Assembly (NCBI RefSeq): GCF_018366295.1
Contig: NZ_JAGZIJ010000001.1
Span: forward strand, 484,462-548,461
DNA: 64,000 bases
Direction: 5' to 3'
Origin: Veillonella parvula
Lineage (GTDB): Bacteria; Bacillota; Negativicutes; Veillonellales; Veillonellaceae
The notes under the pieces were generated by a model. That model ran no database searches, was not told the DNA's origin, and saw only the letters and a program-made list of their open reading frames with translations. Positions within the stretch are counted from its first letter, which is position 1, and each line of letters begins with the position of its first letter. Shown here one piece after another: positions 15,908 to 22,235 of the stretch. A program made the position numbers and the translations under genes.

Positions 15908-17209
15908 TTAATTTTTACAACGTTTCTCCCAGTCGTGAAGTAACTGTTCCTCAGTCCCTCTCTTTATGCCCTTATAGTAGGTTGCATCAACTAGAGGCGT
16001 TGGTAAATACTGCTGTTTTACATATCCATTAGGATAATTATGAGCATACTTATAAGCTTTCCCATGGCCTAATTTACTAGCCCCGCTATAGTGACTATCT
16101 TTCAAATGATCAGGTACTTGTCCACAATCCTTATGTCGCACATCAGATATCGCGGCATCAATAGCTACATAAGCAGAATTACTTTTAGGTGCGAGAGCAA
16201 CATAGCACGCAGCCTCAGATAATATAATGCGCGCCTCAGGAAAACCTACCATATGAGCCGCTTGAGCCGCTGCGTTGGCAAGTATAAGAGCTTGTGGGTC
16301 CGCAAGTCCTACATCCTCTGCTGCACAAATAACAATACGACGAGCAATGAAATTAGGATCCTCTCCAGCTTCAATCATGCGTGCTAAATAATGTACCGTT
16401 GCCTGCACGTCAGAACCACGCATACTTTTTATAAAGGCTGAGATTGTATCGTAATGACTGTCTCCTTTTTTATCATATGTATATATACGACGACCTACGA
16501 CCTTTTCAAGAACCTCAATAGTAATCGTCCCCTCATCGGGAACCATAGCTGCAGCTTGTTCAAGAATATTAAGGGCCATGCGGCCATCACCATTGACGAA
16601 AATTCCCACATCTTCCAGAACTTCATCCGTTACCTGTAGATGGCGTTTGCCTAATCCCACTTCTTCATCGGTAATGGCGCGACGTAAAATTTGACCAATA
16701 GCCTTTGGTGTAAGTGCTTCTAATGTAATAAGACGCAAACGAGATAATAACGGTCTATTAACCTCAAAGAATGGATTCTCTGTTGTAGCACCAATAAGGA
16801 TAATAGTGCCATCCTCTACACAAGGTAACAACACATCTTGTTGGCTTTTATTAAAACGATGAATTTCATCGAGGAATAGAATTGTGCGTTGCTGTAAAGA
16901 ACGAACTCGTTTGCGCGCGTCTTCAATGATGGTGCGCAACTCACCAATACCGGCGTTAGTAGCATTCAGGTTTACAAAATGGCTATTACTCACCTTAGCT
17001 ATAATGCCAGCTAATGTAGTCTTACCCGTTCCACAAGGCCCATAAAAAAGCATAGATGGTATTGTATCCTTCTCTACCATAGCTCTCAAGAAAGTCCCCT
17101 TACCTACGGCCTTCTCTTGACCATATAAATGATCTAGTTTAGTAGGACGCATTCGTACAGGAAGCGGCTCGTATGTATTTGTAGGTGTCATATCAAACAA
17201 ACTATCCAT
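15908..17209 (-). CDS. rarA: Replication-associated recombination protein A (AAA+ ATPase, MgsA/RarA)
   Basis: 433 aa with Walker A GPCGTGKTTLA, an AAA+ core and an MgsA C-terminal domain. Confidence 0.9.
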   Translation of the reverse strand: MDSLFDMTPTNTYEPLPVRMRPTKLDHLYGQEKAVGKGTFLRAMVEKDTIPSMLFYGPCGTGKTTLAGIIAKVSNSHFVNLNATNAGIGELRTIIEDARKRVRSLQQRTILFLDEIHRFNKSQQDVLLPCVEDGTIILIGATTENPFFEVNRPLLSRLRLITLEALTPKAIGQILRRAITDEEVGLGKRHLQVTDEVLEDVGIFVNGDGRMALNILEQAAAMVPDEGTITIEVLEKVVGRRIYTYDKKGDSHYDTISAFIKSMRGSDVQATVHYLARMIEAGEDPNFIARRIVICAAEDVGLADPQALILANAAAQAAHMVGFPEARIILSEAACYVALAPKSNSAYVAIDAAISDVRHKDCGQVPDHLKDSHYSGASKLGHGKAYKYAHNYPNGYVKQQYLPTPLVDATYYKGIKRGTEEQLLHDWEKRCKN

Positions 17210-17450
17210 TCTATCACCTCAATTCGCACTCAGTTTAACTGTCGTATTTTCATATCTATAACTATTCAATCCAAAAAAATTACTGTCCCGTCATAAAAGC
17301 CTAATAACATCAGTAACTCGGTAACACTGATAATATTGGCAAGATATTTATAACATTTATGACATTTAGGACTCTTAAGATTTTAAATAGTTTAAATTCT
17401 TACCAAAGATATATTTATAGTATATGATATTTCAGTCTATTTTTACACGC

Positions 17451-17626
17451 AAAAAAGCCCCACCATGCCGTAATGTACCGCGTTTTGATCCTGCAAGGGC
17501 AGGTGGGTGTCCTCCTCATCCTGCAGTTGTCCCGTAAGGGCGTAACGTTCAGACGAGAGTTCAGACTCCCAAAGTAAATGTGTTGGCTCAAAACTGCGAT
17601 ATCACACGCACATGGCAGGGATATCT
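17451..17626 (-). ncRNA. ssrS: Candidate 6S RNA (SsrS-like structured small RNA), about 175 nt, in the aspS-rarA intergenic region
   Basis: No plausible CDS here; the 80-aa ORF at 17415..17657 has junk composition. The 5' end (CCCUGCCAUG) and 3' end (CAUGGUGGGG) of the minus-strand transcript pair over 10 bp, and this extends into an imperfect roughly 12 bp stem (GUUUUGAGC / GAUCAAAAC). A U6 tract follows the 3' arm. A promoter-like TTG...TATTTA lies upstream. Position just downstream of aspS matches where B. subtilis 6S-1 (bsrA) is located. Confidence 0.5.
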
Positions 17627-17704
17627 TATACTTAAATAGTATCAGAAAGATTAGCAATTAACAAGTCTTGACATTTCGATTTTAATCAATTCTTGCCTAT
17701 GTTT

Positions 17705-19522
17705 TTACACTAAAGATTGCTCTTGTTCTTCTTCTACATCTGGTTTAATATGCAACTCTTTTAATTGCTTTGGTTCTACTTCAGATGGAGCTTGGCTCAT
17801 GATATCAGAAGCAGATTGAGTTTTAGGGAATGCGATTACGTCGCGGATAGATTGACGTTTTGCCATCAACATAACAAGACGATCTAAGCCAAATGCACAA
17901 CCTGCATGAGGAGGTGCACCATATTGGAATGCATCAAGCATGAAGCCGAATTTGGATCTTGCTTCTTCAATGGACAAACCAATTGCTTTGAATACTTTTT
18001 CTTGTACGTCAGCTTGGTAGATACGCAAGGAACCGCCACCAATTTCTACGCCATTCAATACCATATCGTAAGCAATCGCTTTTACGCTGCCAGAATCAGA
18101 TTCCAATTTATCAAGATCCGCATGGCGTGGCATTGTGAACGGATGGTGCATTGCAACATAACGTTTTTCATCTTCGTTATATTCGAACATAGGGAAATCA
18201 GTTACCCAGGTGAATGCCAATTTATCTTGGTCAATCATGTTCATACGACGTGCCATTTCAAGGCGTAGTTCACCTAATGCACGTGCCACAGTTGCAGGTT
18301 TATCAGCAATCATCAATACGAGGTCGCCACCTTTAGCACCCATTTTTTCACCGATATTGCGAATTGTATCTTCACCTAAGAACTTCATGATTTGAGACTT
18401 GATAGAACCATCTTCGTTGAAGCAAGCCCATGCAAGGCCTTTGGCGCCGTAACGATTTACATATTCAACAAGGTCGTCAAGTTCACGGCGAGGAATGCCA
18501 GCGTCACCAGGTACAACAATACCTTTAACTACACCACCATTGTCGATAACAGAACGGAATACTTTGAATTCTGTATCTTTTACAAGATCAGTTACATCAG
18601 TAAAGGCCATATCAAAACGAAGATCCGGCTTATCAGAGCCGTATTTATCCATTGCTTCGTCCCATGTAATACGAGGCATAGGCAAAGAAATTTCTTTACC
18701 TAATGCAGTTTTAAATACATGAGCAATCATCTCTTCAAGCAATGCATAAATATCTTCTTCATCAACGAAGGACATTTCTAAGTCGAGCTGAGTGAACTCA
18801 GGTTGACGGTCTGCGCGCAAATCTTCATCGCGGAAGCAACGAACGATTTGGAAATATTTTTCGTAACCAGCAACCATCAAGATTTGTTTGAAAATTTGTG
18901 GAGATTGTGGCAACGCATAGAATGTACCAGCATTTACACGGGACGGCACTAGATAGTCACGAGCGCCTTCTGGTGTAGATTTAGTAAGCATTGGAGTTTC
19001 AATTTCCAAAAAATCGCGGCTATCGAAGAAATCGCGCATTGCTTTCGTTACTTTGTGACGCAAAATCAAGTTGCGTTGCATTTCTGGACGACGTAAGTCA
19101 AGGTAACGATATTTCAAGCGAATATTTTCATCTACATCGATATCATCTTGGATATAGAAAGGAGGAGTTTTAGCAGAGTTCAATACGCGCAACTCTTCAC
19201 AGAACATTTCGTATGCACCTGTAGGAAGATTTGGATTAATAGCAGCCTCATCACGCTTTGTAATCTTACCACGTACACAAAGCACATATTCATTACGAAC
19301 ATCCTCTGCTTTGTGGAACGATTCTACGTTATGATCTGGGGATGCCACCACTTGTACTACGCCAGAACGATCACGTAAATCCAAGAAAATCAAACCACCA
19401 TGGTCACGACGGCGTTCAACCCAACCACATAATACGACCTCTTTACCTACCTCTTGTTCAGAGATGGTGCCACAACCGTGCGTACGGTGTAAGCCTTGCA
19501 TTGTTTCCATTCTAATTGTCAT
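17705..19522 (-). CDS. aspS: Aspartate--tRNA ligase
   Basis: 605 aa class II aaRS with an anticodon-binding OB fold and a GAD insertion domain; follows hisS. Confidence 0.95.
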   Translation of the reverse strand: MTIRMETMQGLHRTHGCGTISEQEVGKEVVLCGWVERRRDHGGLIFLDLRDRSGVVQVVASPDHNVESFHKAEDVRNEYVLCVRGKITKRDEAAINPNLPTGAYEMFCEELRVLNSAKTPPFYIQDDIDVDENIRLKYRYLDLRRPEMQRNLILRHKVTKAMRDFFDSRDFLEIETPMLTKSTPEGARDYLVPSRVNAGTFYALPQSPQIFKQILMVAGYEKYFQIVRCFRDEDLRADRQPEFTQLDLEMSFVDEEDIYALLEEMIAHVFKTALGKEISLPMPRITWDEAMDKYGSDKPDLRFDMAFTDVTDLVKDTEFKVFRSVIDNGGVVKGIVVPGDAGIPRRELDDLVEYVNRYGAKGLAWACFNEDGSIKSQIMKFLGEDTIRNIGEKMGAKGGDLVLMIADKPATVARALGELRLEMARRMNMIDQDKLAFTWVTDFPMFEYNEDEKRYVAMHHPFTMPRHADLDKLESDSGSVKAIAYDMVLNGVEIGGGSLRIYQADVQEKVFKAIGLSIEEARSKFGFMLDAFQYGAPPHAGCAFGLDRLVMLMAKRQSIRDVIAFPKTQSASDIMSQAPSEVEPKQLKELHIKPDVEEEQEQSLV

Positions 19523-20790
19523 CCTTTCACCAAAGAAGTTATACGTTCAGCCACTGTATCAAGAGATACAGTCTCTTGTTCACTAGTATCCATGAATCGA
19601 ATTATGGCTTCTTTACGAGCCAATTCATCATCACCCAATATAATAACATATTTCGCATTAATTTTGTTAGCGTATTTTAATTGTGCCTTCATACTCTTGC
19701 CCTGCCCGTCCATTTCAACGGTAATATATTCATCATGTAAGGCTTGGCAAATTTTGAAAGTCTCTACCTTAGCCGCATCACCAAGAGCGACTACGAATAC
19801 AGATGGTTCTACAGTTGGCTCAGGCAATAAGTTTTGTTTTTCAAGAGCTAATAGTAAACGCTCCATGCCCATAGCAAAACCGATAGCTGGAGTATGAGGT
19901 CCATCGAGCTCTTCTACGAGACCATCGTAACGACCACCACCAGCTACAGCACTTTGAGCACCTAAAGGAGTATATTGTACCTCAAAGGCTGTCTTTGTAT
20001 AGTAATCAAGGCCACGTACGAGACGAGGATTTAAAGTATATTGCACATTAGCTGCAGTTAAATAGGTTTTCAATTCTTCAAAATGATCATGACACTCTTC
20101 ACATAAATGTTCGTGAATTTCAGGAGCACCTACGGACAAGGATTTGCATGTTTCATTTTTGCAGTCCAAGATACGCAAAGGATTTTTGTACAAACGCTCT
20201 TGGCAATCGCTACATAATTGTTCCTTTTTAGGTTCAAAGAAAGCGATTAATTTTTCTCGGTATACAGGACGACATGTTGGGCAACCTACGGAGTTTACTT
20301 CTACATTGAGGTCTTTAAGGCCAAAGTCTTTTAATAACTGTACAACCATACAGATAACTTCACTATCTACCACTGGAGATTGCGAACCTAGTACCTCTGC
20401 ACCAAACTGGTGGAATTGACGATAACGACCCGCTTGCGGTTTATCATGACGGAACATAGGGCCCATGTAATACCATTTTGTGAGACCTTCTTTACCATAT
20501 ACTTTATTTTCTAAGTATGCGCGCACAGCAGACGCCGTATTTTCAGGGCGTAAGGTAAAGCTAGAACCACCGTCATCACCAGTGGTAAAGGTGTACATCT
20601 CTTTTTGTACTACATCTGTAGTCTCACCGATACCACGTAAGAATAATTTAGTTTCTTCAAAGGCAGGTGTGCGAATTTCATTGAACCCATATACTTTACA
20701 AATTTCGCGCATACGTTGTTCAATATAATGCCAATGTATCATCTGTTCTGGCAAAAAGTCTTGTGTACCTCTTGGTTTTCTTATAGCCAT
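19519..20790 (-). CDS. hisS: Histidine--tRNA ligase. The start was chosen at MAIRKPRGTQDF; the ORF extends to 20805
   Basis: About 423 aa class II HisRS with the N-terminal RGTQD motif typical of HisS. It overlaps the upstream gene's stop and aspS's start, indicating translational coupling. Confidence 0.93.
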   Translation of the reverse strand: MAIRKPRGTQDFLPEQMIHWHYIEQRMREICKVYGFNEIRTPAFEETKLFLRGIGETTDVVQKEMYTFTTGDDGGSSFTLRPENTASAVRAYLENKVYGKEGLTKWYYMGPMFRHDKPQAGRYRQFHQFGAEVLGSQSPVVDSEVICMVVQLLKDFGLKDLNVEVNSVGCPTCRPVYREKLIAFFEPKKEQLCSDCQERLYKNPLRILDCKNETCKSLSVGAPEIHEHLCEECHDHFEELKTYLTAANVQYTLNPRLVRGLDYYTKTAFEVQYTPLGAQSAVAGGGRYDGLVEELDGPHTPAIGFAMGMERLLLALEKQNLLPEPTVEPSVFVVALGDAAKVETFKICQALHDEYITVEMDGQGKSMKAQLKYANKINAKYVIILGDDELARKEAIIRFMDTSEQETVSLDTVAERITSLVKG

Positions 20791-22235
20791 TACACAACCT
20801 CCCAAAATCTTTCACAAATTTTATGTCGTTTCTCTAAAAGTGCATCTATCGTTACGTGATAAACATCTACGTCTTTTGGCATATGCTGTTTAAGTTGACG
20901 GTATTCAGGGGCTCGCATCCACTTAGACGAGCTGCCAGGCCCCATAGATAGAATACTCTGCCGTTCTTCCATGATCTGAATATTATATTCACACGCTTTG
21001 CCAGGCAAGGTATAGCCAATATTCTCTAACTGCCCTCTCATATATTGTTGGCGATATAAATAATATGGCACATAACCAGCTGCTTCAAGACGCTCTTTAC
21101 CATATTGTACCATTTCCGCCACAAGATGTTCTTCAGGAATATCATCTTCCATATGTAAATCGTACAACGGGCTACCACGTTTTAATGCTAACGTATGAAT
21201 TGTAACATTTTCCGGCAGATTTTGACATACATAATCCATATTCTCTATCATGTTTAACATCGTTTGATTAGGCAAGCCTGCAATAAAATCCATATTTACG
21301 GCTAATGATGTATTGTTTTTTACATATTGTAAAAGTTCATCAATATCCCGTACACTATGGCCGCGTCCAATACGACGCAAAATATCATCTTGCATTGTTT
21401 GCGGGTTAATGCTAATACGATTCACACCTAGCGCAAGCATGGAACGTAGCTTTGTAGGATTAACAGAATCAGGTCGTCCTGCCTCTACAGTAAATTCATG
21501 ACCTTCTGGTACGAGTAGAGACAACTGTTTTAGAACCTGGTGAAAGTCTTCATCCTTTAGCACTGTCGGAGTACCACCGCCCATATAGAGGGTATTTACG
21601 GTTAAATTATAAGATTGGACAATAGCTTTCATATCTTCTATATCACGGGTTAAAGCCTTTAGGAATTGACTTTTACCAGCATAATCCTGATAGAGACCAT
21701 ATGGAAACGAGCAATATACACAACGCGTGTCACAGAAAGGAATACCACAATAGAGACTCACCTTTTTATCATCTGTATCAGATAGAAATGGACGTTGATA
21801 CTCGCCAATGTCCCCCAAAGTAGCAAGCTTTTCCATAGACACAGAAAACTCGTCCCGAATGTGACGAGTTGCTGCGTGGACAGAGCCATATGTATCTATA
21901 TATTTATGTAGTAGCTTTGTAGGGCGCACACCTACCATAGTTCCCCACGGAGCCTCAGCAGGTAAGCCTTGATATTCACGCAAATAGCGCAACAAGGCTT
22001 GTCCAATTTGGCGACGCCCCATAGAGGAAACAGGGCCTTCAAAAATCTGAACCGAATCACCAATGGTAACAGTTAATGTGTAGAGCCCTTCCACTTCATG
22101 TGCTTCAAGGATAACCTCTGGATTTATCTTATCAGAAAAGAGTCCCGCCGCGCCACAGTTATGAGCTACTACGGAGCCAAGTGGTAATGGACCCGTATAT
22201 AGATATCCATTAACCATGATGGGACATACGCTCAA
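20790..22235 (-). CDS. HemN/HemZ-like radical SAM protein (oxygen-independent coproporphyrinogen-III oxidase family, long N-terminal extension)
   Basis: 481 aa with CGIPFCDTRCVYCSF (CxxxCxxC) and a HemN-like C-terminal domain. The size and N-terminal extension resemble Bacillus HemZ. Confidence 0.6.
   Translation of the reverse strand: MSVCPIMVNGYLYTGPLPLGSVVAHNCGAAGLFSDKINPEVILEAHEVEGLYTLTVTIGDSVQIFEGPVSSMGRRQIGQALLRYLREYQGLPAEAPWGTMVGVRPTKLLHKYIDTYGSVHAATRHIRDEFSVSMEKLATLGDIGEYQRPFLSDTDDKKVSLYCGIPFCDTRCVYCSFPYGLYQDYAGKSQFLKALTRDIEDMKAIVQSYNLTVNTLYMGGGTPTVLKDEDFHQVLKQLSLLVPEGHEFTVEAGRPDSVNPTKLRSMLALGVNRISINPQTMQDDILRRIGRGHSVRDIDELLQYVKNNTSLAVNMDFIAGLPNQTMLNMIENMDYVCQNLPENVTIHTLALKRGSPLYDLHMEDDIPEEHLVAEMVQYGKERLEAAGYVPYYLYRQQYMRGQLENIGYTLPGKACEYNIQIMEERQSILSMGPGSSSKWMRAPEYRQLKQHMPKDVDVYHVTIDALLEKRHKICERFWEVV

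Follow-up and report, generated by a model that had tools for sequence, protein, structure and literature searches.

The 495-bp gap that separates aspS from rarA (positions 17210-17704) in this Veillonella parvula contig raises the question of whether it is simply a spacer or contains a gene of its own. The window analysed here is a stretch of 64,000 nucleotides (64 kb), and an earlier note on it had proposed that the gap holds a candidate 6S RNA on the minus strand, with ends at 17451 and 17626. A cmscan search of the whole window against Rfam 15 places in the gap a full-length match to the 6S/SsrS family RF00013 (model positions 1-187 of 187), which runs from 17453 to 17624 on the same strand and so lies within 2 nt of both proposed ends. 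Its score of 89.7 bits is about twice the gathering score of 46.4, with an E-value of 1.8e-16 for the whole window. Nothing else in the 64 kb attained its Rfam gathering score: no T-box leader, tRNA or other family did so, and no second 6S paralogue of the 6S-2 type was found. Searching 17100-17800 against Rfam at a permissive threshold (E <= 1) likewise returned no RNA family other than 6S. We put at about 95% the probability that the element is ssrS, the 6S RNA gene of this member of the Negativicutes, lying on the minus strand with its own promoter and specifying the canonical rod. The coordinates of its features are collected in Table 1.

Table 1. Features of the putative ssrS locus of V. 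parvula, numbered from the first letter of the window.
Feature	Positions	Strand	Remarks
-35 element TTGTTA	17659-17664	minus	TTG 17664-17662 invariant in 17 diverse Veillonellaceae sequences
Extended -10 element TGaTACTAT	17636-17644	minus	TG 17644-17643; hexamer TACTAT 17641-17636, 17 nt past the -35 element
Predicted primary 6S RNA (ssrS) transcript	17451-17629	minus	About 179 nt, from predicted +1 A17629 to the U6 end; ends predicted from promoter geometry and U tract
Closing helix, 5' strand CCCUGCCAUGU-GCG...	17606-17620	minus	Helix 1: 14 pairs, 100% of cells paired, 2 compensatory pairs
Predicted pRNA template AGUUUUGAGCCAAC	17582-17595	minus	Predicted start opposite C17582, by homology
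Central bubble, 5' strand GCCAACACAUUUACUUU	17571-17587	minus	About 17 nt, unpaired in MFE, centroid and consensus structures
Apical (internal) arm	17504-17570	minus	Helices GGGAGUCU/GGAC.CCC and CUCUCGUCU/AGGAUGAGGAG, plus terminal stem-loops
Small hairpin of the 3' bubble strand, CCUGC-CCUU-GCAGG	17490-17503	minus	Helix 7: 5 pairs, 98.8% of cells paired, no compensatory change
Closing helix, 3' strand ...ACGGCAUGGUGGGG	17458-17472	minus	Nearly invariant across the genus
U6 tract	17451-17456	minus	One base past the closing helix; likely 3' end and termination signal
80-aa ORF, TTG start	17415-17657	minus	Overlaps the RNA gene; not a gene

The gap lies between the minus-strand ORFs 17705-19522 and 15908-17209, whose products NCBIfam identifies as aspartate--tRNA ligase (891.7 bits) and a RarA-type AAA ATPase; the size of the gap and the aspS-rarA context given in the earlier note are both borne out. 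Farther from the gap NCBIfam recognizes hisS, hemZ and an ftsK-like gene. Within 17705-22235, successive genes of the series hemZ, hisS and aspS overlap (20790-20805 and 19519-19522), and the three look like a single operon. In Bacillus subtilis, hisS-aspS is under T-box control. The AspS protein is 99-100% identical to those of V. parvula strains such as UTDB1-3 (NZ_CP019721.1). Among 80 loci compared from Veillonella and the Veillonellaceae, blastn located the element in 79, in the same orientation and in the same aspS-rarA interval, the exception (L073) being a contig that ends just past aspS; rarA is the next gene and co-oriented in 78 of these 79, the remaining locus (L052) ending past the 6S element. 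When 19 diverse Veillonellaceae loci were searched with the family model, every one returned RF00013 at full length (72.9-96.5 bits), on the same strand and directly downstream of aspS. The suggested synteny with bsrA, the 6S-1 gene of B. subtilis, also holds: the aspS-yrvM location in that species goes back to Suzuma et al. (2002), as cited in PMC3299989, and linkage of 6S RNA to rarA is described across the Lactobacillales and for B. subtilis 6S-1 in PMC8414754. The aspS-6S-rarA arrangement of Bacillus and the Lactobacillales is now extended to the diderm branch of the Firmicutes.

Folding of the minus-strand transcript, a check that the earlier note had suggested, gave a minimum free energy (MFE) of -66 kcal/mol against -49.3 +/- 4.1 kcal/mol for dinucleotide shuffles (z = -4.1), with none of 200 shuffles folding as well; the plus strand, with z = -1.0, folded no better than its shuffles. 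In the predicted rod the closing helix and a second helix lead to the central bubble, whose 5' strand is unpaired over about 17 nt and whose 3' side forms a small hairpin, and the apical arm lies beyond it; the rod thus possesses the closing stem and internal bubble that had been named as the hallmark of 6S RNA. The complementary termini are present as described, the 5' arm CCCUGCCAUG (17620-17611) pairing with CAUGGUGGGG (17467-17458) over 10 bp that include one U-G and one G-U pair. The second stem, which had been called imperfect, is perfect over GUUUUGA (17594-17588)/UCAAAAC (17488-17482) and becomes imperfect once extended to GUUUUGAGC/GAUCAAAAC, with internal hairpins between its strands as expected.

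The fold is also supported by covariation. An alignment of 17 diverse sequences, from V. parvula to V. montpellierensis and including other Veillonellaceae, yields an RNAalifold consensus of 53 pairs, 18 of which show compensatory double changes. Pairing is seen in 98.2% of the cells of this alignment but drops to 41-48% once partners are slid by 1-3 columns, and the 18 double-change pairs compare with 2-6 in the slid controls, a comparison biased in favour of the consensus structure by its derivation from the very alignment tested. None of 500 shuffles reached the observed value on any of five measures. Rfam's own model, which is independent of this alignment, has the same closing helix and apical arm; its sole difference is at the bubble edge, where UGAGCC is instead paired with GGAUCA. 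Helices 3-6 of the apical arm hold 12 of the 18 compensatory pairs, while for the predicted 3'-bubble hairpin the alignment speaks only weakly. Several pairs either are G-U in all 17 sequences or alternate C-G with U-G, or A-U with G-U, a pattern that fits a minus-strand transcript only, since each G-U would be an A-C mismatch on the other strand; C-to-U and A-to-G changes on the 5' side of the closing helix likewise leave the bases paired, as G-U, in the minus-strand RNA only.

The promoter-like hexamers that had been pointed out upstream of the element prove to be real, weak as they are against the consensus. A consensus promoter scan of 17150-17800 with a 9-of-12 cut-off returned nothing on the minus strand; the V. 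parvula promoter was missed because its hexamers, TTGTTA and TACTAT, fit the consensus at just 8 of 12 positions. It was recognized by comparative alignment together with scans of relatives, in which the homologous promoters of V. ratti (L051) and strain VA137 (L061) do score. In the flanked alignment of the 17 sequences, the TTG of the -35 element, the TG of the extended -10 element and T17641, A17640 and T17636 of the -10 hexamer are all invariant, as is A17629, which lies 7 nt past that hexamer and is the predicted +1 of the 6S transcript. To judge from these motifs, the promoter is of the extended -10 type for the housekeeping sigma factor. A scan of 17630-17704, between the aspS stop (17705) and the 6S promoter, found no intrinsic terminator in V. 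parvula, so that aspS transcripts probably continue into the 6S gene. The corresponding aspS-6S spacer of V. ratti (L051:4878-4917) contains an 18-bp hairpin with a T run that overlaps the 6S -35 element.

At its other end the element runs, as had been claimed, into a tract of six U residues, and this tract is conserved throughout the parvula/dispar/atypica clade. No separate terminator hairpin for the 6S gene was found by a scan of the minus strand of 17150-17800. Comparison of 17451-17472 with the equivalent segments of V. ratti (L051:5114-5137) and strain VA137 (L061:5077-5094) reveals two arrangements within the genus. In V. parvula, V. rogosae, V. dispar, V. infantium, V. atypica, V. tobetsuensis and V. 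denticariosi the sequence GGGGC is followed by U6-7 without a separate hairpin; in V. seminalis, V. ratti, V. magna, V. montpellierensis, strain VA137 and further lineages a GC-rich hairpin and U run lie a few bases past the closing helix. In the parvula/dispar/atypica clade the closing stem and U6 probably end the transcript. It is conceivable, if rather doubtful, that in this clade, which has lost the hairpin kept by deep-branching Veillonella, the closing helix with its U6 tract now serves as a leaky intrinsic terminator, both for transcripts from the 6S promoter and for read-through from hemZ-hisS-aspS, its leakiness supplying rarA mRNA. Such a terminator would couple the biogenesis of 6S RNA to expression of a replication-restart factor.

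Within the genus, as few as 29 and as many as 336 nt separate the 3' end of the 6S element from the rarA start codon. In V. parvula this spacer measures about 245 nt, has a GC content of 29-31% and contains no consensus promoter on the minus strand (17210-17450). In the V. atypica/V. tobetsuensis clade the rarA start codon lies about 30 nt past the 6S 3' end, and in V. denticariosi 41 nt (short-spacer loci L038, L039, L041, L043, L045 and L049). Because a spacer of about 30 nt is too short for a rarA promoter, rarA in the V. atypica/V. tobetsuensis clade probably owes its transcription to upstream promoters, those of 6S or aspS, by way of read-through, much as in the ssrS-fau pair of Escherichia coli. 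According to what is reported of the work of Chae et al., the E. coli 6S RNA is co-transcribed with fau and then processed.

Three other accounts of the region have to be weighed against a 6S RNA gene. The 80-aa ORF that overlaps the element has 80 open codons and the orientation of its neighbours, as might be expected if it encoded a small protein, but it has no NCBIfam match and its frame begins upstream of the predicted 6S +1. Nor is that frame conserved among close relatives: 1-nt indels cut it to at most 61 codons or shift it in V. parvula strains (L010, L013, L040 and L023), it is down to 44 codons in dispar-like loci, and in sister species too it is cut or shifted. Substitutions in the region track base-pairing and not codon structure. 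With a chance of coding that is next to nil, the ORF is rejected as a gene and struck from the gene list, in agreement with the earlier verdict that it is spurious and that the gap holds no credible CDS. A little less remote, though still very improbable, is the view that the region is just the 3' untranslated region and terminator of the hemZ-hisS-aspS operon, with no separate functional RNA. The closing stem with its U6 tract is indeed the first terminator-like signal downstream of aspS, and with no intrinsic terminator between the aspS stop and the element, aspS transcripts probably enter it. A terminator, however, has no need of a conserved 170-nt rod with a bubble, and this account leaves aside the full-length fit to the 6S model, the element's own promoter conserved across the genus and the invariant sequence of the bubble. 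In the deeper Veillonella lineages, moreover, the element is not the terminator, since a normal terminator hairpin comes after it there. The two roles are compatible, and termination of aspS transcripts may be a further task of the 6S RNA.

The third account is that the element acts in cis on rarA, as its leader or regulatory RNA, and not in trans as a 6S RNA. That rarA always comes next on the same strand, and that its ATG in V. atypica and V. tobetsuensis follows the element so closely as to imply co-transcription there, would suit such a leader. The spacing, variable across the genus and some 245 nt in V. parvula, is nevertheless unlike that of a leader with an expression platform, and the conservation of the element is accounted for by the Rfam 6S match, the bubble and the pRNA template. 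The linkage of 6S RNA to rarA in other Firmicutes, as described in PMC8414754, occurs with other gene orders and orientations, and the E. coli 6S RNA gene lies about 20 nt upstream of fau, yet its product is still trans-acting. A rarA leader is, on this evidence, barely to be entertained, and the 6S RNA gene is the reading adopted in what follows.

The central bubble of a 6S RNA is the site from which RNA polymerase copies a short product RNA (pRNA), and the candidate template in V. parvula can be placed by comparison with the experimentally studied systems. In the cmscan alignments C17582 and U44 of the E. coli RNA both fall at position 45 of the Rfam model, U44 being the established experimental start of the E. 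coli pRNA (PMC3299989). The predicted V. parvula pRNA, 5'-GUUGGCUCAAAACU, lies on the plus strand with its first G opposite 17582 (GUUGGCUC...), and is identical at 12 of 14 positions to the 14-mer pRNA of B. subtilis 6S-1, 5'-GUUCGGUCAAAACU, as given in PMC8876501. Across the 17 sequences, eleven positions of the template segment 17592-17581 are invariant and one nearly so. In the predicted pRNA, positions 4/5 are GG and positions 9/10 are AA, and the 6S RNA itself has adenine adjoining the start site; PMC8414754 describes a GG dinucleotide, AA at 9/10 and the neighbouring adenine as hallmarks of Firmicute and other pRNAs, and the role of the initiating nucleotide is discussed in PMC3753640. 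The putative template site is conserved and coincides in position with those of E. coli and B. subtilis, and features of the 6S-1 type, namely an aspS-linked locus and a predicted G-initiated pRNA like GUUCGGUCAAAACU, are both found. Blocking the template in silico opens the GUUUUGA/UCAAAAC helix alone, and the duplex formed by the predicted 14-mer has a predicted free energy of -20.9 kcal/mol, near the -22.4 kcal/mol given for that of B. subtilis (PMC8876501). Of the two rearrangements described for the model species, the central bubble collapse helix of B. subtilis and the extended 3'-bubble hairpin of E. coli, neither appears in the constrained fold obtained after this block; the MFE of that fold, a weak test of such rearrangements, leaves AUCAAAAC unpaired, with just a 4-bp UUUG/CAAA pairing possible by eye.

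These features are compatible with the working cycle established for other 6S RNAs, here taken from the cited literature and applied by homology, in which the holoenzyme is sequestered in stationary phase and freed by pRNA synthesis on outgrowth. The V. parvula ssrS gene would be transcribed on the minus strand from its own extended -10 promoter by polymerase carrying the housekeeping sigma factor, starting near 17629 and ending at the U6 tract near 17451. [quoted passage not shown] On the return of nutrients and NTPs, the polymerase would copy the bubble from C17582 into a short G-initiated pRNA (predicted GUUGGCUCAAAAC...), the pRNA:6S duplex would unzip the GUUUUGA/UCAAAAC helix, and the RNA would refold and release the polymerase.

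In kind, the V. parvula 6S RNA is already known, an ordinary member of a well-known family, and a match so far above threshold would be caught by standard annotation pipelines that use Rfam models. A search of the accessible literature for 6S RNA or ssrS in Veillonella or the Negativicutes returned no dedicated study, the matches to 'ssrS' being unrelated abbreviations. The value of the present assignment lies mainly in annotation, in that a 6S gene is placed in an important oral and gut commensal; the promoter, +1 and pRNA sequence provide precise predictions for work on stationary-phase regulation in Veillonella and other Negativicutes.

Comparison with characterized systems shows which features are shared and which are particular to this locus. 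The E. coli ssrS RNA, carried as an ncRNA feature in RefSeq, matches the same covariance model at full length, with 139.8 bits compared with 89.7 for V. parvula, and the two RNAs have in common a conserved UGAGCC motif bordering the bubble, a pRNA start at the same model position (U44 and C17582) and a co-oriented protein gene closely downstream, fau in the one case and rarA in the other. They differ in genomic context, zapA-ssrS-fau as against aspS-ssrS-rarA, and in the initiating nucleotide of the pRNA, which is A in E. coli (template U44) and predicted to be G in V. parvula, while the extended 3'-bubble hairpin of the E. coli type is not predicted for V. parvula. The 3' ends also differ, that of the E. 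coli RNA being attributed to Rho-dependent termination and processing (Chae et al., in PMC3299989), whereas in V. parvula the U6 tract abuts the closing stem. With the 6S RNAs of the Lactobacillales, as they are described in PMC8414754, the V. parvula element has in common the linkage to rarA, a gene arranged as a monocistronic unit behind a promoter of its own, and the hallmarks of the pRNA. The gene order is different, with rarA upstream and uspA downstream in the Lactobacillales but aspS upstream and rarA downstream in V. parvula, and the GG of the pRNA stands at positions 5/6 in the former and 4/5 in the latter.

The closest parallels are with B. subtilis 6S-1 (bsrA), which belongs to the same Rfam family and likewise lies directly downstream of aspS with rarA nearby (PMC8414754). 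There rarA runs in the opposite direction, with yrvM in between, as opposed to its co-oriented and immediately downstream position in V. parvula. The V. parvula RNA, at about 172-179 nt, is predicted to be shorter than mature B. subtilis 6S-1, for which 190-197 nt is given in PMC10578484 and PMC8876501. Both RNAs have a single-stranded 5' extension before the closing helix, of about 9 nt as predicted for V. parvula, and in B. subtilis represented by an 11-nt leader that is removed by RNase J1 (PMC10578484). The small 3'-bubble hairpin present in free B. subtilis 6S-1 (PMC8876501) is predicted in V. parvula as well, while the collapse helix of the B. subtilis type is not. With a G-initiated pRNA predicted for it as well, the V. 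parvula 6S RNA is, as far as its predicted features go, a standard member of the 6S family that stands nearest to B. subtilis 6S-1 in genomic context and in pRNA.
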